In this document: positions 1,888 to 53,414 of the stretch, in pieces
Position numbering within the stretch: the stretch's first letter is position 1
How the letters are laid out: each line of letters opens with the position of its first letter
Source of the DNA: a virus
Length of the DNA stretch: 64,000 nucleotides
IMG/VR virus record: IMGVR_UViG_3300037104_000756
Location: 34,163 to 98,162 of that record
Strand: one strand, 5' to 3'
The notes under the pieces: generated by a model
What the model saw: the letters and a program-made list of their open reading frames with translations, nothing else
Database searches by the model: none
Told to the model about the DNA's origin: nothing
Program-made: the position numbers and the translations under genes

Positions 1888-3539
1888 TTGAACTACCAAA
1901 AGTCACACTAAGTCACTTTGCTCAGACCATCTGTGACCAAAAATATGCTCACACGATGGACGACGGTTCGTTAGAGCATTGGCACAATATCTCCTATCGC
2001 GTCCCGAAACACGTCCTGCGGGCAGTGCGCGCACCGAAGTCTGTAGTGGCGCGGGTGCAGCAACTGGTTGCGCAGAGAAAGTTCATCCCTGGTGGTCGAT
2101 ACCTTGCTGCGACTGGTCGCCTCTTTCATCAAGTGAATAACTGCTTTCTGTTTCGCCCAGAAGATAGTCGTGAAGGTTGGGCTGACTTTATGCATAAGGG
2201 GGTTTTGTCCCTGATGACGGGCGGCGGTAAGGGTGGATTTTATAGCGGAATACGGGAAGAAGGAAAACTGATTCGAAAAACAGGTGGTTTTGCAACAGGT
2301 CCTATTGCTTTGATGCAGATGATGAACGAATCCGGGCGATTTATTATGCAAGGTGGGAGCCGTCGATCTGCAATCTGGGCTGGCTTGAGTTGGTGGCATC
2401 CAGACATCCATAAATTCATTACACTGAAAAACTGGATACCTGAAGTTCGAGCGCTAAAAGCAGCAGATTATAATTTTCCAGCGACGATGGACGGAACAAA
2501 CATCTCTGTGTGTTTGGATGACGATTTTTTTCTGGCGTATGGGGACGAGAAACACTCCAATCACTCTTCAGCGCACTCGGTTTACTGGTCTACGATCCGC
2601 CAGATGCTGAAGACTGGGGAGCCGGGGTTTTCGATTGACTGCGGCAAAAATTCCAAGGAGAACCTACGAAATGCATGCACAGAAGTTACTAGTGCAGATG
2701 ATAGCGATGTCTGTAATCTTGGGTCTATTAATCTGGCGCGTATCGAATCATTGGATGAGATGCGCGAAGTCACAGAATTGGCGAGTGCTTTTCTATTGGC
2801 TGGCACTGTTTACTCTGATGTGCCTTTTGCTGCGGTAGATAAAATTCGGTCCAAGAACCGCAGGCTCGGACTCGGCTTGATGGGGATTCATGAATGGTTG
2901 TTGATGCATGATAAACGCTACGGCGCGGACAGCGATTTGGAAGAGTATTTGAAGATTTACGCTCAGTCGGGATTGATGGTTAACGGGTATGCGGACAAGT
3001 GGGATTTATCTCACCCCATTAAAACCCGCGCCATTGCTCCAGTCGGCACCATCGGCATTATCGGGGAAACTACGACAGGGATTGAACCGATTTTTTGTGC
3101 TGCATATAAACGTCGGTATCTGAAAGGGTCCTCATGGCAGTACCAGTATGTGGTCGACCCCACAGCCAAGCGTCTGTTAGATGCGGGGGTGCCGTCAAAT
3201 TTGATTGAAGACGCGTACTCCTTGGCGGAAGATGTGGAGCGGCGAGTTTCGTTCCAAGCGTGGGTTCAACAGTATGTCGACCATTCCATTTCGTCGACGA
3301 TCAACCTTCCTAAATGGGGATCGCCACTTAACAACGAAGATACCGTGCAATCGTTCGGCAAGATGTTGATCAAATACCTCCCCCGCCTGCGCGGGATTAC
3401 GGTGTACCCTGATGGAGCACGCGACGGTCAACCCCTCAACGCGATGCCTTTATATGAAGCATTGAGGCATGAGGGTGAAATATTCGAAGAGGCTGGAAAC
3501 GCCTGCGATTTGAGCAAGGGTGGGGAGTGCGGAGCATGA
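1884..3539 (+). CDS. nrdJ: Ribonucleotide reductase, compact, probably class II (AdoCbl-dependent)
   Basis: PGGR, NNCFL, RRSA, NISV, GEPG, NACTE (thiyl radical Cys), CNLGSINL, RRLGLG, APVGT..TGIEP, C-terminal Cys pair. No NrdB nearby; the class is inferred. Confidence 0.85.
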   Translation: MIELPKVTLSHFAQTICDQKYAHTMDDGSLEHWHNISYRVPKHVLRAVRAPKSVVARVQQLVAQRKFIPGGRYLAATGRLFHQVNNCFLFRPEDSREGWADFMHKGVLSLMTGGGKGGFYSGIREEGKLIRKTGGFATGPIALMQMMNESGRFIMQGGSRRSAIWAGLSWWHPDIHKFITLKNWIPEVRALKAADYNFPATMDGTNISVCLDDDFFLAYGDEKHSNHSSAHSVYWSTIRQMLKTGEPGFSIDCGKNSKENLRNACTEVTSADDSDVCNLGSINLARIESLDEMREVTELASAFLLAGTVYSDVPFAAVDKIRSKNRRLGLGLMGIHEWLLMHDKRYGADSDLEEYLKIYAQSGLMVNGYADKWDLSHPIKTRAIAPVGTIGIIGETTTGIEPIFCAAYKRRYLKGSSWQYQYVVDPTAKRLLDAGVPSNLIEDAYSLAEDVERRVSFQAWVQQYVDHSISSTINLPKWGSPLNNEDTVQSFGKMLIKYLPRLRGITVYPDGARDGQPLNAMPLYEALRHEGEIFEEAGNACDLSKGGECGA

Positions 3540-4162
3540 TACCAATCAATGGAGATGAAGCACTACATCTCGTTAACCAACAAGCTACGGAGATGGCTGC
3601 CGTGGAAGATAAATTCGAACGAGGTTATGCTCACCTGGGGTGGCTGTTGTTGGAAGTGGCGCAAATGCAGTATTGGCGCGTGCGGTATACCACGTTTCGA
3701 GAGTACCTCCGCAGTGTGTCGCTGATTTCAAAGAAGACGCCCGGACAACTTCACCGATACTTCCTAACGGTGCGCGACCTGAGCGACACATTCGAGCCCT
3801 CTCAACTAGAATTGATGGGAATCACCAAGGCGATGAAATTACGCGCTGCCAAGGACTACGCTATTGTCCTACCCTCCATCATCGTTACCGCCGCCCTCGA
3901 CCCCGCCGTAACTGTTCGGGAGTTGAAAAAAATCATTTCGGTGACGCTCAAGATGCCCGAGGAAGAAGGGGACTGGATGGACCTAGAATTTGAATTCATG
4001 GTCACCCCAGAGCAACGCGCGCTTATCACACAAGCGCTCGATGTCGCCATGCACACGGACCCGCTGACGAAGTCGACCATTTCGAAGTCGGCGCAGATGC
4101 TCGACGTTATGACGAAGTTCGCCCAAGAATTCCTTGGGGCGCACTCGGGAGATGGGAATTGA
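3538..4162 (+). CDS. Hypothetical protein
   Basis: Long ORF coupled to the RNR stop; no motif recognised; exact start uncertain. Confidence 0.6.
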
Positions 4163-4497
4163 GGGATACAGTCTGGGTTAAATTAAACGACGCAGGCATC
4201 CCAGTGCGTATGTTCAGAAACCGCAAGTCCGCACATGCTTCTGGGGTTGAGCGGAACGCTGAGTGGGTGCGATCCGAAGCGGTTTCCTCGATTCGACATC
4301 AAGTTTTTCTACGGTCTAAAGGATATTGTGAATTTTGTGGGGAGATAATAACGGAGAAAACTGGGCATCTTCACGAACAGACTCATCGCGGCAAAGGTGG
4401 GGAAATCTCGTTGGATAACTCGGTCTTCATTTGTCCAACGTGTCATTGCAGGGCTCACGCTGATAGGAGTGTCAAGTTTTCTCGCAAAAACACTTGA
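4159..4497 (+). CDS. HNH endonuclease
   Basis: CEFCG...HLHE...GGEISLDNSVFICPTCHCRAH. Confidence 0.8.
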   Translation: MRDTVWVKLNDAGIPVRMFRNRKSAHASGVERNAEWVRSEAVSSIRHQVFLRSKGYCEFCGEIITEKTGHLHEQTHRGKGGEISLDNSVFICPTCHCRAHADRSVKFSRKNT

Positions 4498-4605
4498 CAT
4501 TTTGGAATTGTTTTGGCATCATGATGGCTAATCCGAATAGCAACGACGAGGGGTGGCGAGTCGTATGAGCAACGGTTCGCCACCTCAAATAAATAGGAGG
4601 TTATT

Positions 4606-5025
4606 ATGGGACGATCAGTGAGCGCAGTAGCAGCCCGAGCGGTCAAGAATAGTGAGAAGGGCAGCAAGCCTGCGAAAAGAACTGGCGAGGAGAGATTGTC
4701 CGCCATTCGTAGCAGCGTTCCTGCAAAGCTTCACGTTCCTATCGGAGAGGTTGGATTTTTGCTGGAGTTGCATGATGCGCTGGTGGTGTTCATAAAAGAT
4801 GTGGTGAATCCCGCGCTCGAACAGACGCGCCACGAGCGAGACGCCTTCGCTCATCAGTTGTTTGAGTCACAATCAGACTTCTCTACCTTTCGATGTGTCT
4901 CCCTCACGAAAATTGATGAACTCGCCGCGTCACATGCAATTGCGCTGCAGTCCGCTAATCAGGAGATCGACACCCTCAAGGCGCAGCTTGCAGGGTCCGG
5001 GGATGGTCCGAATGCTGAAGGATAA
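4606..5025 (+). CDS. Hypothetical coiled-coil protein
   Basis: Strong SD (TAGGAGG); helical C-terminus. Confidence 0.6.
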   Translation: MGRSVSAVAARAVKNSEKGSKPAKRTGEERLSAIRSSVPAKLHVPIGEVGFLLELHDALVVFIKDVVNPALEQTRHERDAFAHQLFESQSDFSTFRCVSLTKIDELAASHAIALQSANQEIDTLKAQLAGSGDGPNAEG

Positions 5026-6169
5026 GGAAGGCAACCGACTGTTCCGAAAAGTTCAGGTGAAAGTAATTTACCCGGACAATATTTTCCCTGCGAAGACGTT
5101 CACGCAGCACGCGGGTCCGCAGCAGGGATTTGGTCCGACCGGGGTGGACGACATTTTGATGAAGATCGCGGACCAGTTGGACACCCTTTACCCGTGGTGG
5201 GATTTCAAGTCCGTGGCGTTGAAGCCAGAAGGTCGCACGCTTCGGTACGTTTTCACTTTTTCTGGATATTGCGCGGGAGCGCCCGCCACAATTACCAATG
5301 AAGGGTTAGACTAACGCGGAGGAGAAAAATGAGCATATTCATCACCGAAGGTCCGAGCGCAGCCGATCCTCTTGATGTAGCTCCAATCACCGTCATAGCT
5401 CCAATCACTGCCTTAGGATTAGGTGGGTACCCTATTCGAATTGTGGCGAACACTTGGCGTTCGCGCGCTGCAGTGTGGTTATTGCGCCGGTATGTTCAGA
5501 GAGTTTTGGAGGCGTCAAATGTCTCACGAACGTTTTGAGATTTGGGAAGAGACGGACTCGGCTTTTCCGCAATGGCCCTGGCGCGCCCAGGTGGTGAACT
5601 ACGTTGCTCGCTTTGCTAGTCGGGAGTCTGCTGAGAGTTTTGTGAAGAGTGTGAAAGAATATCGCGAGCAAAACAAACTCAAGTAAGGTAGAGGGTAATC
5701 GGTCCGCAGGTTAGTGGTCCGCATTTGCAGTCCGCGCAGGTGGTTTCGTACGATTCCCAACAAAGCGTAAAATAGCACGGCCATTTTGCTCCACAAATTT
5801 TGCAGATGTGTGGCTGGCTCCATGGAGTTTCATATACTGGTGGAGTTTTCTTCATCGGAGGTTTGCCAACGCGGTGTTTACCTTCAGGCGGATGTACGAT
5901 TCTTCGAGAGAAGGTTTTTGATGTTGCCAGTATTCGAAGGCTTGGATTTCGAGAACCAGGGTGGTTTCGCGACAATCTCGGCGCAGGTCATTGACAACAA
6001 TTCTGTGGAGTGGGGATGGTTGTCTGTTAGATGCTTCGAGCGCTTCCTGGCACTCAAGAGCACGCTTGCAACGGCGGATAGTCTCTATAGTGATGAGTTC
6101 CCCGTCCGTGAGTTTGACGATCTTCTTTTTCATTGTCTGCTCCTTGGGTGAAAGAATATCAGAAAACAG

Positions 6170-6205: not shown

Positions 6206-6673
6206 ATGGCTGATTCAACCATCGCGATTGCGGCAACCCTTGTTCACGAAGGTGGGTATGTGAATAATCCTGCCGACCCAGGCGGCGCAACCAATATGGG
6301 GATTACTCAGGCAGATATGCCAGGGCAGGATATGCGCGCACTGACGGTCGCACAAGCCACGACCTATTATTTGGCGCACTACTGGAAATCACTCTACTCC
6401 CAAATTGTCGACCAATCCATCGCCTCAAAACTCTTCGACATGGGCGTCCTGTTCGGTGTCGGGACGGCAGTTAAATGTTTGCAGGGAGTTTTATGTGTCT
6501 CCCAAGACGGTAATTTTGGCCCAGACTCTCTATATCACCTCAACGTGGCGAGCCAATCGGCGACTCTTGGTTCCTATAAAACGGCACTGCTTGCGCATGC
6601 AGGTAGAGTGGCAACATCGAACCCCAAAGAAATTGTGTTTTTGGTGGGATGGCAGAGGAGAATCAATTCGTAA
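6206..6673 (+). CDS. Glycoside hydrolase family 108 endolysin
   Basis: HEGGYVNNPADPGGATNMGIT, YW, DGNFGP, F..GW.RRI. Confidence 0.92.
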   Translation: MADSTIAIAATLVHEGGYVNNPADPGGATNMGITQADMPGQDMRALTVAQATTYYLAHYWKSLYSQIVDQSIASKLFDMGVLFGVGTAVKCLQGVLCVSQDGNFGPDSLYHLNVASQSATLGSYKTALLAHAGRVATSNPKEIVFLVGWQRRINS

Positions 6674-9001: not shown

Positions 9002-9700
9002 ATGAAGAAATTTCTTTTGGCATTGCTGTTTGTATTGATGAGTTTCGCTCCGCTCGCGCACGCGCAAACGCGCCTGTCGGTCGGTCTTGCTGGTGGAAAT
9101 AACGTGGATAACTTGAGCGTAGGACCAGCGGTCGCTATTGAAGTTCCATTCCTGCGGCATTTCGAATTGGATTTGCGCGACACGTTTTCTCCGTACGAGC
9201 GGCACACGGCATTGGGAACCGGGTATGCCAACATCGTCAAGGGCGGCGGCATTATTTGGTTGACTAAAAGTTTTGGAGTTGTGGGAATCGCCGAGTCTTC
9301 GAGCTACGCGGTAACGCAAGTGTCGAAGAGCGCGGTGTACACCAATGCTGGGGCGATCTATCGGACGTTGTTTTTGGGCGCGCCGACACGCTTTGAATTC
9401 GATTATATCCAGCAATCCAACAACGGCATTACGAACGGCATCGAGACCAGCCACTTTCATGGTGGAGAGTTCAGTATCGATACTCGATTCGGATGCGCGA
9501 AGTCTGCATGCTTGCGCGTGCGAGAGCAGTTGGACATCGGTCGCGTGCTCACTCAAGGCAATCCCGCGTGCGATGGCAACGGAATAACCGACCCTCGATT
9601 CTTACCTTGTCCGCGTGGTTCAGCAATCACAGGTGGTGGTTCTGTGTCGCTGATGTTAGAGTTCCCGCGCAGGAAGGTAATCGAAACTACACCATTCTAA
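9002..9700 (+). CDS. Exported protein, possible outer-membrane beta-barrel
   Basis: Sec signal peptide (AHA|Q), alternating amphipathic strands, terminal Phe. Confidence 0.6.
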   Translation: MKKFLLALLFVLMSFAPLAHAQTRLSVGLAGGNNVDNLSVGPAVAIEVPFLRHFELDLRDTFSPYERHTALGTGYANIVKGGGIIWLTKSFGVVGIAESSSYAVTQVSKSAVYTNAGAIYRTLFLGAPTRFEFDYIQQSNNGITNGIETSHFHGGEFSIDTRFGCAKSACLRVREQLDIGRVLTQGNPACDGNGITDPRFLPCPRGSAITGGGSVSLMLEFPRRKVIETTPF

Positions 9701-27681: not shown

Positions 27682-28245
27682 GTTCGTAGTATATCACGAA
27701 GTATCCGCAAGAGTCCACTTCAGTTACTAAAGCGGCAGACTGTCCAGCACATCATAAATATTAGCCATATAGACCAGAACACAATCATCGCGGCCAGCTT
27801 GGTGGTAGCGGTGTGGGACCACCTGGATTAGGCATCGGAGAGCAGGCTGACGGAGGTAGGCCACCGCAAGGGTCGTACGGGCCATTTTGGGCGAGTACCG
27901 ACACTGTGCTGGACAACCCATAAATGAGCAGCCCGAGTGCTAGAACTGCAGAAAGACTAATCGTTGCAAGTGTAATTTTCATTGCGGCTCCTTTACTGAG
28001 AGAATGCGAACTTCAGGACCATCGTTGGCGGAGTCCGCATCATTGAACAGACTGTTGATGAGTGACGCCAACAGTGGCATCTGATACGCCGCCAGTGCGG
28101 CTACGATCATCGTTCGTTCACCAGAGGTGATTTCGATTTTACGTTTCATGCTGGTCTCCTAGTTTTCTTATCGGGATATTTTGCGAGTGCTTTTTCAACA
28201 AGGCGTTTGATATGGTTGAATTCCTTCACGGTCTTCCATGCGTTA

Positions 28246-30967: not shown

Positions 30968-31305
30968 CTGACCAATCTACCAGAAATTCTAATCCGCTGT
31001 CAACTCTTTTTGTTCCCAGCAATCATGCATAGTGTTGACGTACCCCTGCGTGACAAGGTCCCGCTCGAACACCGCGATCTCTTTTTGAGCGTGGATCAAC
31101 TGAATGTGGTACTGCGCCCAAGTGCTGCGGTGAATAGCGCGCGTATTCTCCGCAAAGTGGCGCTCGATGCCGTTCCGATATTGCTTAGGCTGTACATTCC
31201 CCGCGCAGCCCTGTTCGTCGAATCCCTGCTCATCCCTGACCGATAGGCGACCAGGGAGTTTGGGCGGGAATAGTTTTGATAGCAAGTGGCTGATCCATGC
31301 AGGCA

Positions 31306-31746
31306 TCATGGGGTCTCCTCTAGTTGGATGTTGAAAGTTGTTGATTCAAGATTGAAGAATATAACCGGGTAGACGAAAACGGCAGTCAGACCTTCACCCA
31401 GGTAGTCTAGTTGGTCCGCCGCAGCGGAGGAAAGGTCCAAGATACGATGTAGGCGAAGGTTGGGACCACGATCAGTAATGGTCACAACGACGGATTCGCC
31501 ATTCTTAATGTTTAACACCCTAAGCTCTGTGCCAAACGGAAAGTACCAACTGGCTGCGGTTAGCTTGTGACAATCAAAGCGCTGCCCGTTCGCCATCTTC
31601 CGACCTTGACGGTCCTGTCCATACCATGAAGCGGTACCCATATACTGCATTGTCGCGCGGTGCTTTATGGGTGCTGCAGACGTTGAGGGGGTCCACAGCA
31701 GGCTCGCTACGATCAGCAAACCGAAAACTCGTAGTATAGTCTGCAT
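31306..31746 (-). CDS. rlpA: RlpA-like lytic transglycosylase (DPBB domain), exported
   Basis: Signal peptide; GTASWYG..MANGQRFD..LTAA..PFGT.LRV.N..NG.SVVV.ITDRGP..RILDLS. Confidence 0.9.
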   Translation of the reverse strand: MQTILRVFGLLIVASLLWTPSTSAAPIKHRATMQYMGTASWYGQDRQGRKMANGQRFDCHKLTAASWYFPFGTELRVLNIKNGESVVVTITDRGPNLRLHRILDLSSAAADQLDYLGEGLTAVFVYPVIFFNLESTTFNIQLEETP

Positions 31747-31792
31747 AGTTAAATCTCCTTTGCGTCAATTTTGTTCAACGGTGCGCGATGTT

Positions 31793-32020
31793 TTATGCAG
31801 CCCTCCTGCGTGCTAGAGTTTTCCTGGCCTGCAGGATGTGTGCGCAGGCGGTACGCCGAAAGAGGAAGTGTTCGCAACTGCAAGCCCAGCTTCGACCTTG
31901 CTTCGTCACCGTGTGATTAACTCGACCAGGGCGCGAGCGGGATTGAATGGTGCCATACGCGATGACGCCCTTGCGGGGTGCGTCGGCGGTTTTTAGACTC
32001 AGGACTCTTGGTGTTTTCAT
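31793..32020 (-). CDS. SWIM zinc-finger protein
   Basis: S.SRPG..H.V...W.CSC..F......CAHI. Confidence 0.75.
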   Translation of the reverse strand: MKTPRVLSLKTADAPRKGVIAYGTIQSRSRPGRVNHTVTKQGRSWACSCEHFLFRRTACAHILQARKTLARRRAA

Positions 32021-32026
32021 GTTGAA

Positions 32027-32070
32027 AGTGTACCAATTCCCGACCCATCGGTCAAGGGTACGAAAGTACT
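32027..32070 (-). promoter_or_regulatory. sigma70 promoter with GTAC box (SWIM-RlpA-SprT-sigma4/NusG operon)
   Basis: AGTACTTTCGTACC-C-TTGACC-17-TACACT-6-ATG. Confidence 0.75.
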
Positions 32071-32113
32071 AATATTCAAGACTTTTCAATTCATAGATAT
32101 ACGAGGGATTTCG

Positions 32114-32437
32114 ATGCGGTGGTTCTGGACATTGTTGTTGTGTCTACTGTTGATTGGATGTGTTTCTGCGCCTTCTATCACCACCTTGACCGTCACAACC
32201 GAAAGTCTTCCCGGGGCTACAATCGGCACTATCTATGCCCAGCAACTCACAGCCAGTGGTGGAGTCCCCCCCTACACCTGGAACGTTGCTGCTGGAAATT
32301 TGCCGAATGGCGTCACGTTGAACGCGTCGGGGGTTCTGGCAGGAAGAGCTACAGAATCAGGCTCGTTCACTTTTATGATTCAGGTTACAGATTCGGCGTC
32401 ATCAGTTTCTACTATTAAAATAGGGGGCGGACAGTGA
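32114..32437 (+). CDS. Lipoprotein with a single putative Ig (He_PIG-like) domain
   Basis: Lipobox LIGC; TTESLP.A..G..Y...L.ASGG.PPYTW...G.LP.G.TL...G.L.G. Confidence 0.8.
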   Translation: MRWFWTLLLCLLLIGCVSAPSITTLTVTTESLPGATIGTIYAQQLTASGGVPPYTWNVAAGNLPNGVTLNASGVLAGRATESGSFTFMIQVTDSASSVSTIKIGGGQ

Positions 32438-33099
32438 AATTTCTCAAATGGTTTCTATTCTTGGTTCTACTTTTTCCTTGTGTCGTATCGGCGCAGGATA
32501 AGGCAACAAAAACACTCACTCTTGTGGTCAACGCAGGGGCAGTGTCCATCACGACGCCAACAATTCCTAACGGCATGGTGGGGCTGGTATACCAAACCAC
32601 TATCACCGTAACGGGAGGGTTGGCTCCGTACACATTTTCCGTGTCCTCTGGCACACTTCCAGCAGGGATGGCTATAGCGTCAGGCACTGGCGTTCTCTCT
32701 GGGACACCGATAACTGCAGGCACCAGCACTTTTACCGTGCAAGTTACGGATGCTGAAACTCCAGCGGTGATTGCTTCGCAGTCATACACGATCACCATTC
32801 TTGCGCAGTTGGCGATTACAACGAATAGTCTGCCAGCCGCCAACATTGGAGTCGGATATAGCGCTACGATCACGGCTTCGGGCGGCGTAGCACCATATAC
32901 ATTCGCGGTCACGACTGGGACACTGCCAGCGGGGCTTACGTTGAATTCTGTGACAGGTGTGATATCTGGGACACCGACAAGCGCGGGGTCGTTCACAATC
33001 ACCATCACGGTAACCGACTCGGCTAGCAACATAGCGATGTTGGATATCAAAACAACCATTGAGGTCGCGGCAGTCTTTGTGCTAGACTTCAACGCATGA
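32434..33099 (+). CDS. Exported protein with two putative Ig (He_PIG-like) domains
   Basis: Signal peptide VSA|QDK; two GG.APYTF...GTLPAG...GV.SGTP repeats. Confidence 0.8.
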   Translation: MKFLKWFLFLVLLFPCVVSAQDKATKTLTLVVNAGAVSITTPTIPNGMVGLVYQTTITVTGGLAPYTFSVSSGTLPAGMAIASGTGVLSGTPITAGTSTFTVQVTDAETPAVIASQSYTITILAQLAITTNSLPAANIGVGYSATITASGGVAPYTFAVTTGTLPAGLTLNSVTGVISGTPTSAGSFTITITVTDSASNIAMLDIKTTIEVAAVFVLDFNA

Positions 33100-33440
33100 A
33101 AAATAACTGGCTCGGTCTAATCGTCTTGGCTCTCGCGCTGGTGGTTAATCCTACCCGCGCGGGGGCTCAAGATAAGACTTCGAAAATTTTCATCATCATC
33201 GTCGGGCACATAGTGACGATTGGATGGACCGCTTCGACGACTCCAAATGTCACATACAACGTCTATGTGAGTTCTGTTCGAGGAGGACCATATTTGAAGA
33301 TCGGTCACACGGCGGGTACATTTTTCGGGGACATTGACGGCACGTCAGGCAACACCTATTTTTATGTGATCACTGCGGTAGACGCTGCAGGGAATGAGAG
33401 TATCAATTCAACTGAAGTGTCGGTCGTCCTCCCAAATTAG
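33096..33440 (+). CDS. Exported FN3-domain protein
   Basis: Signal peptide AGA|QDK; W.AS...YNVY...Y.YVITAVD..GNES..S. Confidence 0.8.
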   Translation: MKNNWLGLIVLALALVVNPTRAGAQDKTSKIFIIIVGHIVTIGWTASTTPNVTYNVYVSSVRGGPYLKIGHTAGTFFGDIDGTSGNTYFYVITAVDAAGNESINSTEVSVVLPN

Positions 33441-33443
33441 TTC

Positions 33444-33472
33444 TTGACACTTAACGCAACATCGGGTAAAGT
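33444..33472 (+). promoter_or_regulatory. sigma70 promoter of the tmRNA gene
   Basis: TTGACA-17-TAAAGT. Confidence 0.8.
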
Positions 33473-33477
33473 GCAGG

Positions 33478-33900
33478 AGTCGAGTTTAAGATCGACACGG
33501 TGGAGGCAGAAATCGTGCCCCAAAAGCTGGTCGTGCAGTTAACACGCGCTGAGCGAGTTCCGTGACGCGAATAGGACGGCGACCTTAAATTACGTTCGTA
33601 TAAAGCCTATGGCTTCTCAGAAAGACGAGGGTTCGACTCCCTCCGAGTCCACCCTGCCACACAGCACGGATGTTCCGACGCCCAAAGGGCTGACGATCTA
33701 ACCACTGTGTGGTACGGTGGGCTCGACTCGGTTTCGATTTTTGAGATAGTGGTGGGGCTACTTCGAACCGTCCTGACAACGACGTTAAAAGAGATCAAAC
33801 CAATAAATGCGATGCCTAAAAAGCTAGCACAGGTGGTTATGTTCGCGCAGCGCCCTGCGGCATTCGTGCCCCAGGCACTCGCGGCATAGTCGCCGGGGGA
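33478..33900 (+). ncRNA. ssrA: Circularly permuted (two-piece) tmRNA
   Basis: T-arm GAGGG-TTCGACT-CCCTC and acceptor 3' strand CGAGTCC-ACC (33627-33653) lie upstream of the 5' strand GGGCTCG (33719), giving G3.U; tag frame 33809-33889 ends in ALAA*. Confidence 0.92.
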
Positions 33901-33931
33901 GGGAGCCCGAAAGGTTCTCTCCTTTCATTTT
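33896..33931 (+). terminator. Intrinsic terminator after the tmRNA
   Basis: GGAGGGAGCC-CGAAA-GGTTCTCTCC then TTTCATTTTT. Confidence 0.75.
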
Positions 33932-33944
33932 TCAGGAGAATTTT

Positions 33945-34175
33945 ATGAGTCATCATTCTTTAGATGGATTCACACCCATCAGTTCGGACCACATTGACGG
34001 TGCAAAGTACAATTCCATGGATCAGAAGCTGACGGTGAGGTTTAAAAACGGGTATGTATATGAAGTTCACGCCGTGTCGCCCAGGGACCACCAAGAATTC
34101 ATGAACGCGCCGTCACAAGGCAAGCACTTTCACACATGCTTCAAGGGAAACTACCACATCGAACGCGTCAAGTAG
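33945..34175 (+). CDS. KTSC domain protein
   Basis: SS..I....Y......L.V.FKNG.VY....V......F.NAPSQGKHF....KG.Y. Confidence 0.85.
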   Translation: MSHHSLDGFTPISSDHIDGAKYNSMDQKLTVRFKNGYVYEVHAVSPRDHQEFMNAPSQGKHFHTCFKGNYHIERVK

Positions 34176-36107
34176 TTTTGAGAATGTCGGTGACGGGAGT
34201 CTCGCGAATCACGTCGAGGAAACTTCGCGGATGCATCCAACATCGGAAGTCCTTCGCATCTGAGATGTAGATGCACCACAAGTGGTCATCCCCCAGTATT
34301 TGGATGCGGCAATTTGGATGCGTCTCGCAGTAGGCGGATATTTCATCAGCTTCCGCTTGTGTGATTGGTTCGCTCATGGCTATTCTTCCCCCAGAGTCTT
34401 TTGTAAGACGAGAGTCTCGCGGCATCCTGGGCAAGAGACTTCCAAATGATATGTGTATCCGCAGCACTCGCATTCATCCGCCCACATCGAAAACTGTTCA
34501 GAGGCGAGGACGAATTCATGCCCGCATGTGCATTTTACTGTAAGTTTCATGGAGCCCTCCTAGTCGTTCTCTGGTCGAGCATGGGAAGTAGCAGATTTCT
34601 CGGTTATCATCGAGCACTGGGAGTCGCAGCCATGGGCATCGTCATCACAGCCGCAGTGCCACGCGGGACCGAAGATGCCGTCCCACCAAAATGGTTGGCA
34701 GCCCTTCGCAACAGCAAGCATGAAAATGCGGTCGTGATCCATTAGTCGTTCTCCGGTCGCGCCAACTCACCATACACGATGGTCGGTTCGGTCGCGGGCT
34801 GGTGAACGGATACCGCAGCGTTGAACGAGAATACAACTTCCTGGTCGCCGTCGAGGCGCGCCAACATTCTAGCCAATTTCTGACGCATCTGGCTGACTGT
34901 ACATGCAGCATGCAGGGTAAATTTAAGTGTTGCCATTTTCTCTCCTCTTTAGATATAGATACCTGCGGATTTGCCGCACGGCTGGGCTGTATCAATAGTG
35001 ATCCAGCCCAAGGTGCGCACAGCTTTGTAAGAAAAAGCTACGGCTCGATCAACGCAGTCTTCGCAGGCATGGAGGGTGCCGTAGGGGCGAATGACGACGG
35101 TACGGTCAGAACATTTTCGCCTTCCGCAGAGATCACACATATCATGGCTGCACATTTTTGTCGACCTCCTTGACATTCTTCGGAGCGGCGTTGATTCGTG
35201 TTTCAGCCATCGCGATGGTTTGTTTTGCTCGGCGAATTTCGCTGCGCCAGTAGGCTACATTCGATGCCCATGTTTTGTGTTGCTTTTCTTTACATCCCAG
35301 CCGTCTCTTCCGATTAGCCTCATATTCGGTTACGAGGCGCGCGGCATCGGCCAGGGCTCCCAATTGCGTGAGAAACAAATCCTCTTCGTCAACGTGCCAA
35401 CCGCCGCAGGAGTATGTGACGTGATCTACGTCGTCCTGTCTGTGCAGTTCGATTCCAGTGATGGTGGCTTCCTCGGTGCGGGCGACAAACGTATAGGACT
35501 GGATTTTTCCTAGCGATCCGTCCCAGCCATGCTCGCAGCAAACGCACGGGATTGAAACCTGGGACTCGTCGCCCAGAATCACGCGAAGCCGCGCACTGCC
35601 TAAACATTCTGGACAGATAGTCTCGATGGCTTCTAGTCCTGCCTTCGCTCGCCAAACTTTATCGCCGATGTTGAATTTCATTGGTCTCTCCTCATGGTGG
35701 TAAACACCCACGCCAAAAACAGAAGGTCACAGATAAAAGCAACTCGCAGGGACCACAATAAAATCTGTTGCATGGTGTCCATGTTTCACCTCGCATTTGA
35801 ACGGTATCACACAACTAGCCGAAAGTCAATCTCGCAGACCGACCTCTTGCTCCAGACGATACAGCATGCTGAAGTGGGGACCCGTGTCTCCGCAATTACC
35901 ACAGCAACCGTCTACATTGCTGTACCGGGACCCGCTCTTGTTCAAATCGGCGTCCAACTCGGCGCGCAGTTTTTTGAATACCACTGCCAACTTCGCCTGC
36001 TCGCTCTTGGTGAACTTTACAGTCATTGGAGCCTCCTCAAATTTGCCAGCCGCTTGGCCTTGATCGATGCGCAGGATACGATACTTTCGCAGAGCGTATC
36101 CATTCAC
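34168..36107 (-). other. Cluster of small minus-strand hypothetical ORFs (several Cys-rich)
   Basis: Coupled ORFs such as 34742-34936, 34949-35176, 35142-35680 and 35826-36107. Confidence 0.55.
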
Positions 36108-48243: not shown

Positions 48244-48783
48244 ATGAAGATCAAGTCAATCCTCATCGCAATGGTTCTATTCGTCACTCCGGTTTTCGCT
48301 TCACAGAATTATCCGTTAACGACTCCCTACAACATTCCCGCCCTCTCAGCCGTTTTCCCGGCTTCCGACAACAATGCGGGTATTGAAGTTACCCCCTCAT
48401 CTGGAGTCACCACTGTCGACAAGACCTCCTTCACCGGAAACATGTACGTGGTATCGGCACGGAACGGTAACGCCAGTTTCGGCGTGGCCTACTTTGATTA
48501 CGCGACCACGCGCGCCACAGGGTCCGACAACTTGGACAATGTGATAGACGGCAGCATTTCCGCAATGAAGATGGTGTTGGTCCCGAACAGCCGTGAGAAC
48601 ACATCGTTCGCCGGTTTGTTTGCCCGTGAAGGACATTCGGTCTCTGATACATTGGAAGCGTACACAATCACTACCGTTGTCGGCTCGCGGTGCTATCTCT
48701 CCGTGGTTGTGTTCGACAAGTCGCTGCATGGTACTGAACAAGACGCGAATGATTTCTTCGCGTCAGTCAGGCAGGGTCGGTAG
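48244..48783 (+). CDS. Exported protein (possibly PsbP-like fold)
   Basis: Signal peptide; C-terminal R.YL.VV...DANDFFASV. Confidence 0.55.
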   Translation: MKIKSILIAMVLFVTPVFASQNYPLTTPYNIPALSAVFPASDNNAGIEVTPSSGVTTVDKTSFTGNMYVVSARNGNASFGVAYFDYATTRATGSDNLDNVIDGSISAMKMVLVPNSRENTSFAGLFAREGHSVSDTLEAYTITTVVGSRCYLSVVVFDKSLHGTEQDANDFFASVRQGR

Positions 48784-49106: not shown

Positions 49107-49634
49107 ATGAAACTCAAGGTCTTCGTTCTATCAGTGGTTCTACTTTTATCGGCAGGGATGGCGATGGCGCAGTATACGTACCCGGTCAATCCTAACCCGA
49201 CTAAATTCCAGACTACATTCTATTCGAATGACCAGTTTCTAGCGACGTTCAATAGCTCGGTGACAGTAACTATTGAACAGAAGAATACCAGCACGGATAC
49301 CATCTACCAGTCGTTTAATCACGGGGTTGTTCAGGCGATATCGGTTCGCATTATCGACCACGACATTCCGGTTGATGTGTCCTCGTCGGATTTCTACATG
49401 AACAACGATCCCCTCGATACACCTATTACGGTTCATTCAACAGGCACATGGGGCGGACGCCCGTTCACGTACGCTTACCGTCAATTTACTTTTTCGGGCA
49501 GTGTGTTCTCCAAGCGCACGCGCGCCATTATCGTTAACGCTCGGGAAGTCATCTTCGTTACCCAAATCGCCGCAATGTCGTACGATGATCAAAACGAGTG
49601 GTTTGACTTCGAATACTCACTGCGCGTCAGGTAG
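49107..49634 (+). CDS. Exported protein, probable distant paralogue of 48244
   Basis: Signal peptide AMA|Q; similar length and layout; same upstream GAGAGTAAAATCG. Confidence 0.55.
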   Translation: MKLKVFVLSVVLLLSAGMAMAQYTYPVNPNPTKFQTTFYSNDQFLATFNSSVTVTIEQKNTSTDTIYQSFNHGVVQAISVRIIDHDIPVDVSSSDFYMNNDPLDTPITVHSTGTWGGRPFTYAYRQFTFSGSVFSKRTRAIIVNAREVIFVTQIAAMSYDDQNEWFDFEYSLRVR

Positions 49635-52424: not shown

Positions 52425-52701
52425 GCTTCAGGAAATTAAAGATAATGTAATCTTTCAGCAGTTGACGACCGGCAACGCAGCGTCGACGTTCTTCAGTATG
52501 TTCCAGGGTCGCTGCACCTTCGCGGCGATCTGTTTTTCAACGGCGGGAGTTTACGGCTGGCTTCACGGAAAAGATTTGACATCTTTCGCTTTGTTTGTGA
52601 CTGCAGTGCAGGGGCTGCTAGTACTCCACAGTTGGAAAGAAGATAGCGCAGAACAGCAAGAGATTAAGCACAACGGGCAAAACCCAGGAGACCGCAAATG
52701 A
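52425..52701 (+). CDS. Small two-TM membrane protein (holin-like, uncertain)
   Basis: Two hydrophobic helices and a charged tail. Confidence 0.45.
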
Positions 52702-53414
52702 AACGTTTCTTAACCCTCGCCTTAATTTTTGTTTTGGCTGCGGCATCGTTTGGGGCGACCTCGATTCAAGCGCCCAAAGGATTTGCGGGCACCCTCTATC
52801 GAGGCACTTTAGCACTATACGCTATTCAAGGGGACCGCACGCGCTTCCTTTGCACAACCGAGCCGTTTGAGAAAATCGCGGGCGGTTACCATTTGATTAG
52901 CGCCGGGCATTGCGTGCAACTCGTACCTGCCGATGTTAAATTTTTTGTTGCTGATGACATAGGCGGACCTTTAACGCCGGTCACTATGCTCAAGGCGCAC
53001 CTCGGAGACGACCTGGATTTTTCTGAATTTGAACTCAAGACCGCGCGCGCGTATCCCATCTTTGAGTTGGGCGACGAACGTGACATGCGTGTGGGAGACG
53101 CCGTCATCAATCCAAATTTTGCGGGAGGCGTAGTTAAACAACTCGGCTTCGGCACCATTTCGTCGGGCACTATTCCCGTATCACCCAAATGCGAGGTTGA
53201 TGATTGTGCGGGATATTTCTTGGTGCAGATATATGGCATGGGTGGTTCATCAGGCTCCGCTGTGATTTCGGATAAAACCCACAAGGTGATTGGTCTCGTT
53301 GTGATGGGTTTCGGCGCGCCAATCGGGTTTGGCGTGGAGCCTATTTCGAAGTTCGCTCGTTTTTTGGCGGAACCAAGTCAACCGCATCCTACTGACGAGG
53401 ATGAAGACCAATGA
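52698..53414 (+). CDS. Exported trypsin-like serine protease
   Basis: Signal peptide; SAGHCV, DLDFS, GGSSGSAV catalytic triad. Confidence 0.85.
   Translation: MKRFLTLALIFVLAAASFGATSIQAPKGFAGTLYRGTLALYAIQGDRTRFLCTTEPFEKIAGGYHLISAGHCVQLVPADVKFFVADDIGGPLTPVTMLKAHLGDDLDFSEFELKTARAYPIFELGDERDMRVGDAVINPNFAGGVVKQLGFGTISSGTIPVSPKCEVDDCAGYFLVQIYGMGGSSGSAVISDKTHKVIGLVVMGFGAPIGFGVEPISKFARFLAEPSQPHPTDEDEDQ

Follow-up and report, generated by a model that had tools for sequence, protein, structure and literature searches.

A phage cassette whose three exported proteins may be joined by donor-strand complementation of He_PIG domains

Three overlapping genes in a phage genome raise the question of what an exported protein gains from a beta-strand that belongs to none of its own domains. 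The genes lie on the + strand at positions 32114-33440 of a 64,000-nucleotide stretch ("the window", positions 34,163 to 98,162 of IMG/VR record IMGVR_UViG_3300037104_000756). The record describes a 98,162-bp virus that is 98% complete according to CheckV and occurs in peat and permafrost metagenomes. The three open reading frames (ORFs), of 107, 221 and 114 codons, encode a lipoprotein with one Ig-like He_PIG domain, a protein with two such domains and a protein with an FN3-type domain, which are called here the base, middle and cap proteins. In the middle and cap proteins, QDK and a beta-strand stand directly after the signal-peptide site. Sequence comparisons and structure models suggest, with a probability of roughly 0.6, that donor-strand complementation links the three proteins to one another in the host envelope, each lending a G strand to the preceding He_PIG domain.

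The genes of the base lipoprotein precursor (32114-32437, 107 aa), the middle protein (32434-33099, 221 aa, GTG start) and the cap protein (33096-33440, 114 aa) share stop/start overlaps of 4 nt, GTGA between genes 1 and 2 and ATGA between genes 2 and 3, and they are predicted to be translationally coupled. An overlapping unit of three exported proteins had been proposed from the letters of the window (the original prediction), and the ORF calls, the overlaps, the export signals and the domain matches bear this out. The base protein starts with an n-region and an h-region, followed by a lipobox, L-I-G-C, whose Cys16 codon is at 32159-32161. It is probably lipid-anchored to a membrane, and the outer membrane is favored because residue +2 is not Asp. 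Its single He_PIG domain (PF05345; aa 24-100, E 3e-10, 40.7 bits versus a cut-off of 24) covers positions 4-89 of the 96 in the Pfam profile.

The middle protein has a signal peptide (aa 1-20, 32434-32493) with a predicted signal peptidase I site between VSA and QDK. The AxA-type cleavage site is kept in 46 middle-protein orthologues, and an AlphaFold2 (AF2) model has a helix at residues 2-12. The putative donor strand (aa 21-33, QDKATKTLTLVVN, 32494-32532) follows, and then two He_PIG domains, D1 (aa 34-124, 32533-32805) and D2 (aa 125-198, 32806-33027), which together match Pfam at E 1e-29 (102.8 bits versus the same cut-off of 24). D1 is a full domain that includes a G strand of its own (aa 113-123), and it covers profile positions 5-95; D2, the predicted acceptor, covers 5-85. 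These two and the base domain are the only He_PIG domains in the whole phage. A C-terminal tail of 23 residues (aa 199-221 and stop, 33028-33099) is amphipathic, beta-prone and weakly conserved, and is possibly a placeholder strand. The cap protein comprises a signal peptide (aa 1-24, 33096-33167; predicted site between ..RAGA and QDK, of AGA type), a donor strand (aa 25-37, QDKTSKIFIIIVG, 33168-33206) followed by His38, and an FN3-type domain (aa 38-114 and stop, 33207-33440) that starts at strand B and lacks a canonical A strand.

The origin of the N-terminal strands can be read from generic proteins with tandem He_PIG repeats. In such proteins, the chain passes from strand F to the next repeat as ..TD-SATPTANTATKxLxLTV-.. 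or ..ANTATKTLTLTV.., and the N-terminus of the middle protein matches in register. Smith-Waterman alignment to 73 generic tandem He_PIG proteins gave a mean score of 123.0 with the 13-residue strand and 113.3 without it. When the strand was shuffled (n=40), the mean was 115.7 and the maximum 119.1, so that none of the 40 shuffles reached 123.0. In BLASTP, the third high-scoring segment pair (HSP 3) placed the strand against the G strand of an orthologue's D1. By these comparisons, the N-terminal strands of the middle and cap proteins are homologues of the He_PIG FG loop and G strand. The shuffle test and the BLASTP alignment thus uphold the proposal that the N-terminal strand resembles a final He_PIG strand.

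Conservation was measured as the mean frequency of the commonest residue in the 46-member middle-protein family. It is highest in the donor strand (0.84), followed by D2 (0.82), D1 (0.73), the tail (0.58) and the end of the tail (0.36), and the Q and D of QDK are nearly invariant in the 46 orthologues. A short, T-rich and highly conserved strand directly after a signal-peptide site could also serve as a beta-augmentation ligand for a host periplasmic protein, for example as a mimic of a TonB box, with the Ig and FN3 domains as cargo or spacers; mature BtuB starts QDTSPDTLVVTA. However, the strand is in register with He_PIG G strands and fills a He_PIG slot in a natural fusion protein (L002, below), and the strands of the FN3 proteins are not like TonB boxes. 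Acceptors without a G strand would also be left unexplained. A ligand for a host protein is very improbable, and donation of the strand to a neighboring He_PIG domain is the preferred reading.

The structure predicted for the middle protein has room for such a donation. The AF2 monomer model of the window protein, made from 46 input sequences, has a mean predicted local distance difference test score (pLDDT) of 88.5. D1 is complete, with an F strand at 96-105 and a G strand at 113-123. In D2, the F strand spans just 5 residues (190-194) and no strand follows, so the model has no D2 G strand; pLDDT drops along the tail from 72 to 60 and 46. Residues 21-36 are unpaired in cis. In VIA structural alignment to 48,161 PDB chains, tandem cadherin-like matches span only model residues 34 to 193-199; these include the CDHL modules of SraP (PDB 4m00 and 4m03; Z 11-12, 26-31% identity).

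With one donor strand and one open acceptor in the same chain, and with a D2 lacking a tail in the related phage L366, the N-terminal strand might instead fold back to close its own D2, which would make the middle protein a circularly permuted two-domain protein. AF2 does not predict this cis closure, though. The strand is tied to strand A of D1 by three residues and is directed away from D2, as expected for the G strand of a repeat ahead of D1, so cis closure is sterically unlikely. It would also leave the lipoprotein and the FN3 strands unexplained, and we regard it as extremely unlikely.

Trans insertion is favored, indirectly, by a protein in which the junction is continuous. L002 carries two He_PIG domains, a QDK strand and an FN3 domain in one chain, with an 8-residue loop between the F strand and the QDK strand. 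The Pfam He_PIG match spans the QDK strand and covers profile positions 5-95 of 96. In its AF2 model (pLDDT 88.3), the F strand of D2 is full length, with 10 residues (157-166), and another strand of 10 residues (175-184) takes in ..SSAPFLIVVG. Alignments to the same PDB targets extend 11-15 residues further with L002 than with the window model (for 4m03_A, to 291 versus 279). FN3 structures match residues 182/187-261 and skip the first 16-19 target residues, which correspond to strand A. In the model of this continuous chain, the QDK strand, orthologous to that of the cap protein, serves the He_PIG domain before it as G strand, and FN3 begins at strand B. Before its He_PIG domains, the fused protein of L002 also has, at 3326-4018, three repeats of ~70 residues that contain Cys (..GGPTGYTFC.SE.G.C.FTG..); these repeats have no Pfam match.

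Related cassettes include acceptors that end before a G strand. L366 is a syntenic 97-kb relative from the same phage group, and its middle protein is 43% identical to that of the window over residues 1-193. Its D2 reaches the stop codon (..TFTLQVASAQ-stop) 28 residues sooner than the window protein does, and the next gene, joined by an ATGA overlap, encodes a signal peptide, QQTATIQLSIQVGH and FN3, with the strand and the His reading QQTATIQLSIQVG-H. In L298, gene 1 encodes a signal peptide, a donor strand (AQKATQQITITVV) and a He_PIG domain ending ..VTFAVTDSTL-stop; gene 2 encodes a lipoprotein with a He_PIG domain ending ..FTFTVSVTQ-stop; and gene 3 encodes a signal peptide, QKTTRQVVIPVLV-QH and FN3. 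Both He_PIG domains of L298 end at Pfam profile position 80-82 of 96, with 1-3 residues remaining. In L313, gene 2 encodes a signal peptide, a proline-rich linker and a He_PIG domain ending ..FQVDVTVK-stop, at profile position 79 of 96 with 0 residues remaining, and the genes flanking it on both sides carry QDTAS.TFTLT strands. As judged from their sequences, the L298 and L313 acceptors cannot close alone, and the sole G-type strands nearby are the N-termini of the neighboring products.

A comparable split is seen in a phage protein of 325 aa that has no signal peptide (L013 3608-4585). It ends after the F strand of He_PIG (..FTCAVTDSA-stop), and the next ORF (L013 4582-5376, GTGA overlap) opens with a G-like strand, MSTCASDFAIHVVG. 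MSTC recurs at the start of a third ORF, at 5377. The same joining of split domains may occur in virion proteins.

The original prediction is partly sustained. Its core, in which the strand of the next subunit closes the previous Ig fold, withstood each test that was made and has strong comparative backing. The AF2 model of D2 without a G strand, the unpaired N-terminal strand, the L002 fusion and the acceptors of the relatives agree with it and form indirect but converging support. A further part of that proposal, in which the lipoprotein lacks its final strand, was half right. The tail of the base protein (..SVSTIKIGGGQ, 32393-32434) is indeed short after ..TDSAS, and its GGGQ codons overlap the purine-rich ribosome site of gene 2. 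However, the ..STIKI segment is G-like, and its x-I-x-I pattern is kept in base orthologues. Orthologues of the base protein are present in L126, L127, L128, L001, L205, L206 and L366.

Several results weigh against donor-strand complementation. An ungapped test of G-strand likeness with a position-specific scoring matrix (PSSM) was non-significant for every donor strand, with D1 scoring 12.8 bits as the control, and support for G-strand likeness therefore comes from gapped alignment only. The QDK strand has a pLDDT of only about 62 in the L002 model. L298 and L313 are single contigs for which searches for relatives gave only generic He_PIG virion proteins, so the ends of these acceptors lack the backing of conservation. 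Also, with a hidden Markov model (HMM) of the He_PIG unit, the D2 tail can be placed at the positions of the G strand (hmm 2-87), and D2 may be complete, with AF2 having failed to dock a variable tail whose pLDDT is 72 at residues 201-210. Both acceptors in the window retain tails of their own. Because these tails are kept, although weakly conserved, complementation is not obligatory in the window phage.

The tails admit another history, in which an ancestral tandem He_PIG-FN3 gene was cut in three, its products became self-sufficient Ig-like binding modules closed by their own tails, and the N-terminal strands are leftovers. The beta-prone tails of the window acceptors, the D2 tail that can be aligned to G positions and the x-I-x-I of the lipoprotein are all compatible with such relics of fission, as is the clear origin of the strands in generic He_PIG repeats. 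Yet conservation in the protein peaks in what would be the leftover and is lowest in the tail. The tail is left undocked by AF2, and relatives without tails would have incomplete domains. We therefore consider fission relics unlikely, and complementation in trans better accommodates the pattern of conservation.

Under donor-strand complementation, the proteins would be exported by Sec, and removal of the signal peptides would free the N-terminal strands. The strand of the middle protein (aa 21-33) would enter the base He_PIG domain as its G strand, and that of the cap protein (aa 25-37) would enter D2 of the middle protein in the same role. The product would be a lipid-anchored rod with the order He_PIG, He_PIG, He_PIG, FN3, equivalent to a covalent tandem array with a nick in each of two FG loops. 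The acceptor tails, short and poorly conserved, of the window phage would probably be replaceable placeholders, as in the self-complemented TasA monomer before fibre formation. Trans insertion itself, the order of pairing, the stoichiometry and the membrane location are what we infer here; a 1:1:1 complex is favored, although middle units might also form a longer chain.

In the longer form, the middle protein would polymerize head to tail, its strand entering D2 of the next copy, to make a shaft between the lipoprotein anchor and an FN3 tip. The middle protein is both donor and acceptor, the donor strands share QDK, and the acceptor tails share the pattern hydrophobic-K-hydrophobic-(E/Q)-I-(K/R); moreover, no FN3 cap accompanies the middle protein in the L129 cassette. 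Against a polymer, no result indicates self-association, the stop/start overlaps suggest that the three proteins are made in roughly equal amounts, D2 is paired with a strand of FN3 type in the L002 fusion, and the phage encodes neither an usher nor a pore through which a long fibre could be secreted. A polymeric fibre is thus a doubtful alternative, a little less likely than fission relics, and the short heteromeric rod is preferred.

The cap protein of the window has no Pfam match at E 0.1 or better, and a closest-relative search with it gave only 3 relatives. Its assignment to FN3 comes from a profile of the cap family, which matches thousands of PF00041 proteins, and from the cap-orthologous part of L002, which aligns to FN3 structures with Z 9-10.4 and root-mean-square deviations of 1.8-3.2 over 72-79 residues, strand A being absent. 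QDK and the His38 after the strand are invariant in 8 FN3 cap orthologues. Exhaustive profile searches and profile searches of longer proteins with the FN3 family were swamped by giant multi-FN3 proteins and gave no further fusions. A 1040-aa phage protein (L303 157-3279) contains a covalent junction from He_PIG to FN3 (..TASKEFSLTVLPAGPRSVLVKW..), in which strand B of FN3 lies within six residues after the G strand. To judge from this sequence, a junction of the L303 type seems to be the arrangement from which the cap gene was cut.

The middle protein has about 45 orthologues in soil and peat data, of 197-229 aa and 54-71% identity. The whole cassette is found in IMG/VR contigs of 73-119 kb (L126, L127, L128, L001, which is the same as the L130 contig, L129 and L366) and also in the metagenome contigs L205 and L206. 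Its neighborhood is syntenic with the window in L126 and L366, among others, and different in further contigs. Because its position varies and related phages give it different promoters, the cassette is moron-like and appears to behave as a mobile moron. In a scan of bacterial genomes, one per species, all matches were generic He_PIG repeats, most of them from Acidobacteriota, and the cassette was not found in any prophage. The soil phages that bear the cassette probably have hosts among the Acidobacteriota.

All cassette types keep the same roles, comprising a base that is acceptor only, a middle protein that is donor and acceptor, and a cap that joins a donor strand to FN3, with overlapping stop and start codons. 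The base is a lipoprotein or a linker-bearing protein, depending on the cassette. In L128, a fourth gene with a signal peptide (6281-6649; 122 aa, no family) follows FN3. In L129, a 291-aa secreted protein (4446-5321) with Ig_3/I-set and He_PIG domains and a short tail takes the place of the lipoprotein, and there is no FN3 gene. The third gene is longer in L001 (4990-5595), L205 (1006-1629) and L206 (1151-1774), where it encodes 201-207 aa. This long cap has a LuxR/GerE helix-turn-helix (Pfam 5e-11), a hydrophobic segment, the QDK strand and FN3; it starts at the usual stop/start overlap, and its topology is that of a ToxR-like membrane-bound regulator. Perhaps the cassette forms a chaperone-free heteromeric donor-strand rod that crosses the periplasm from an outer-membrane lipoprotein and, in these three contigs, couples the outer membrane to a membrane-bound transcription factor whose DNA-binding domain is cytoplasmic. 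This idea is speculative and, on present indications, improbable. If true, it would represent a new trans-envelope sensor with which a phage could monitor the condition of the host envelope or register that other phages have arrived.

Among known systems, the chaperone-free ones offer the closest parallels. Archaeal threads (Saci_0406, with the cap Saci_0405; PMC9715654) and Bacillus TasA/TapA (PMC9674648) have Sec signal peptides that signal peptidase I removes, and in both an N-terminal donor strand completes the beta-sandwich of the adjacent subunit, with no dedicated chaperone or usher. The thread cap, Saci_0405, is a donor only, and the TasA monomer is self-complemented before exchange. 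As in these systems, the predicted signal peptidase I sites of the cassette stand directly before the donor strands, and they are conserved in the cassette orthologues. In contrast, threads and TasA are cell-made homopolymers of one unrelated fold. The cassette comprises three different phage proteins, one of them a lipoprotein, with He_PIG (cadherin-like) and FN3 domains, and the chain is interrupted at the FG loop, in a kind of domain otherwise usual in covalent tandem arrays. By analogy, the acceptor tails in the window may play a TasA-like self-complementing role.

Chaperone-usher pili (type 1, P and Caf1) also have G-strand-less Ig-like subunits that are closed by the N-terminal extension of the next subunit, and their chains follow the same logic of acceptor only, donor and acceptor, and terminator. 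They belong to another fold family, and the donor strand of the cassette differs in running straight into the next domain, in the manner of a covalent array. Compared with chaperone-usher subunits, the cassette proteins have the donor extensions; the lack of a G strand is clear in the relatives and, in the window, comes from the AF2 model for D2 alone. A PapD-like chaperone (PF00345) had no match in the 98%-complete phage genome, whereas control genomes do match, and an usher (PF00577) had no match in the phage genome. The analogy drawn with these pili thus holds for the mechanism and fails for the machinery, as the phage encodes neither component. On these parallels, the cassette is closer to the chaperone-free systems than to chaperone-usher pili.

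The other analogy of the original prediction was to type V pili of Bacteroidia (FimA and Mfa1; PMC13655056), which have a lipoprotein anchor in the outer membrane and exchange strands after removal of a placeholder strand. Only the lipoprotein anchor carries over. Type V subunits have C-terminal donor strands and an unrelated fold, start out as lipoproteins in every case and depend on an Arg-specific protease for activation. The cassette shows none of this; its donor strands are N-terminal, and a lipobox is found only in the base protein. Tandem He_PIG or cadherin-like surface proteins, such as SraP with its CDHL modules, share the family and the fold, and the predicted complex would mimic such an array. 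However, arrays of the SraP type are single chains, whereas that of the cassette is split over three genes, with the cuts inside domains.

To our knowledge, pilus-style joining of strands has not been described for phage-encoded envelope proteins. The superinfection-exclusion lipoproteins Llp of T5 and Cor of phi80, and other moron-encoded envelope proteins, act singly, and we know of no strand complementation in proteins of the Llp/Cor type. They resemble the cassette in being small phage lipoprotein cassettes with their own promoter and a variable placement in related genomes, but the PHROGs search revealed no similarity of the Llp/Cor type. A role as an envelope-modifying moron fits the variable position, the separate promoters and the export signals. 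As a guess that we hold with low confidence, the cassette may alter the envelope of the infected cell, for example by superinfection exclusion or receptor shielding. The display on the cell surface and the adhesion or receptor masking of the original prediction are likewise conjectural. The passages of the Tuc2009 baseplate paper that were searched contain no account of strand complementation.

PHROGs gave no functional name for the three cassette proteins, and blastn of window positions 31000-35000 against the phage database found no match. Two other functions were considered and rejected. Virion decoration, suggested by a Hoc-like PHROG match (E 7e-6), conflicts with the export signals on all three proteins. 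A two-component spanin conflicts with the all-beta Ig/FN3 domains, and the PHROG search gave no spanin match.

An AGACT-N8-CATAG motif stands 18 nt upstream of the first ATG, at 32079-32096 (+), and could serve as a phage-specific promoter. The more general AGACT-N8-YATAR occurs 6 times in the window versus 0.17 expected, always on the + strand (13038, 16409, 21876, 28300, 32079 and 60897). Where checked, the copies sit 8-26 nt ahead of start codons, and their spacing is unlike that of a sigma-70 promoter. An RGACT promoter had been proposed for the cassette; the recurrent motif is indeed present upstream of gene 1, with its promoter role that of a candidate, but it is not kept in the relatives, most of which have a TTGACA-type promoter.

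Upstream of the cassette and divergent from it is a gene for a secreted RlpA-like DPBB protein, a homologue of lytic transglycosylases (Pfam 3.7e-19). Directly downstream, at 33562-33980 (+), is a permuted, two-piece transfer-messenger RNA (tmRNA) gene (Rfam RF04321, 67.2 bits versus a gathering score of 47), whose tag peptide according to ARAGORN ends ..PQALAA. A promoter-like site, TTGACA-17-TAAAGT, at 33444 and a terminator-like hairpin at 33895-33925 lie near it. At least six further phage proteins, the RlpA-like one among them, have signal-peptide-like N-termini, an exported set of a size unusual among phages; by sequence, such ORFs are at 9002-9700, 27785-27982 (-), 31306-31746 (-), 48244-48783, 49107-49634 and 52698-53414. 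Opposite gene 2 is an antisense ORF of 225 codons (32415-33092, -), and similar ones are found in L126-L129. It is probably not a gene but a shadow of codon usage rich in Thr, Gly, Val and Ala.

Donor-strand complementation is known from cellular fibres, namely chaperone-usher pili, type V pili, archaeal threads and TasA. If the reading preferred here is true, the principle would extend to a Sec-exported, heteromeric and phage-encoded system, and a very common adhesin domain, the cadherin-like He_PIG, which normally forms covalent arrays, would be used for strand exchange. A tandem-domain gene would have been divided inside its domains, with products that re-associate without a chaperone. Strands of about 13 residues and acceptors of about 80 residues would then be natural plug-and-socket parts, and the natural variants, which are tailed, tail-less or fused, make the placeholder idea directly testable. 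For phage biology, the cassette suggests that abundant soil phages carry a class of envelope-modifying morons that has yet to be studied.

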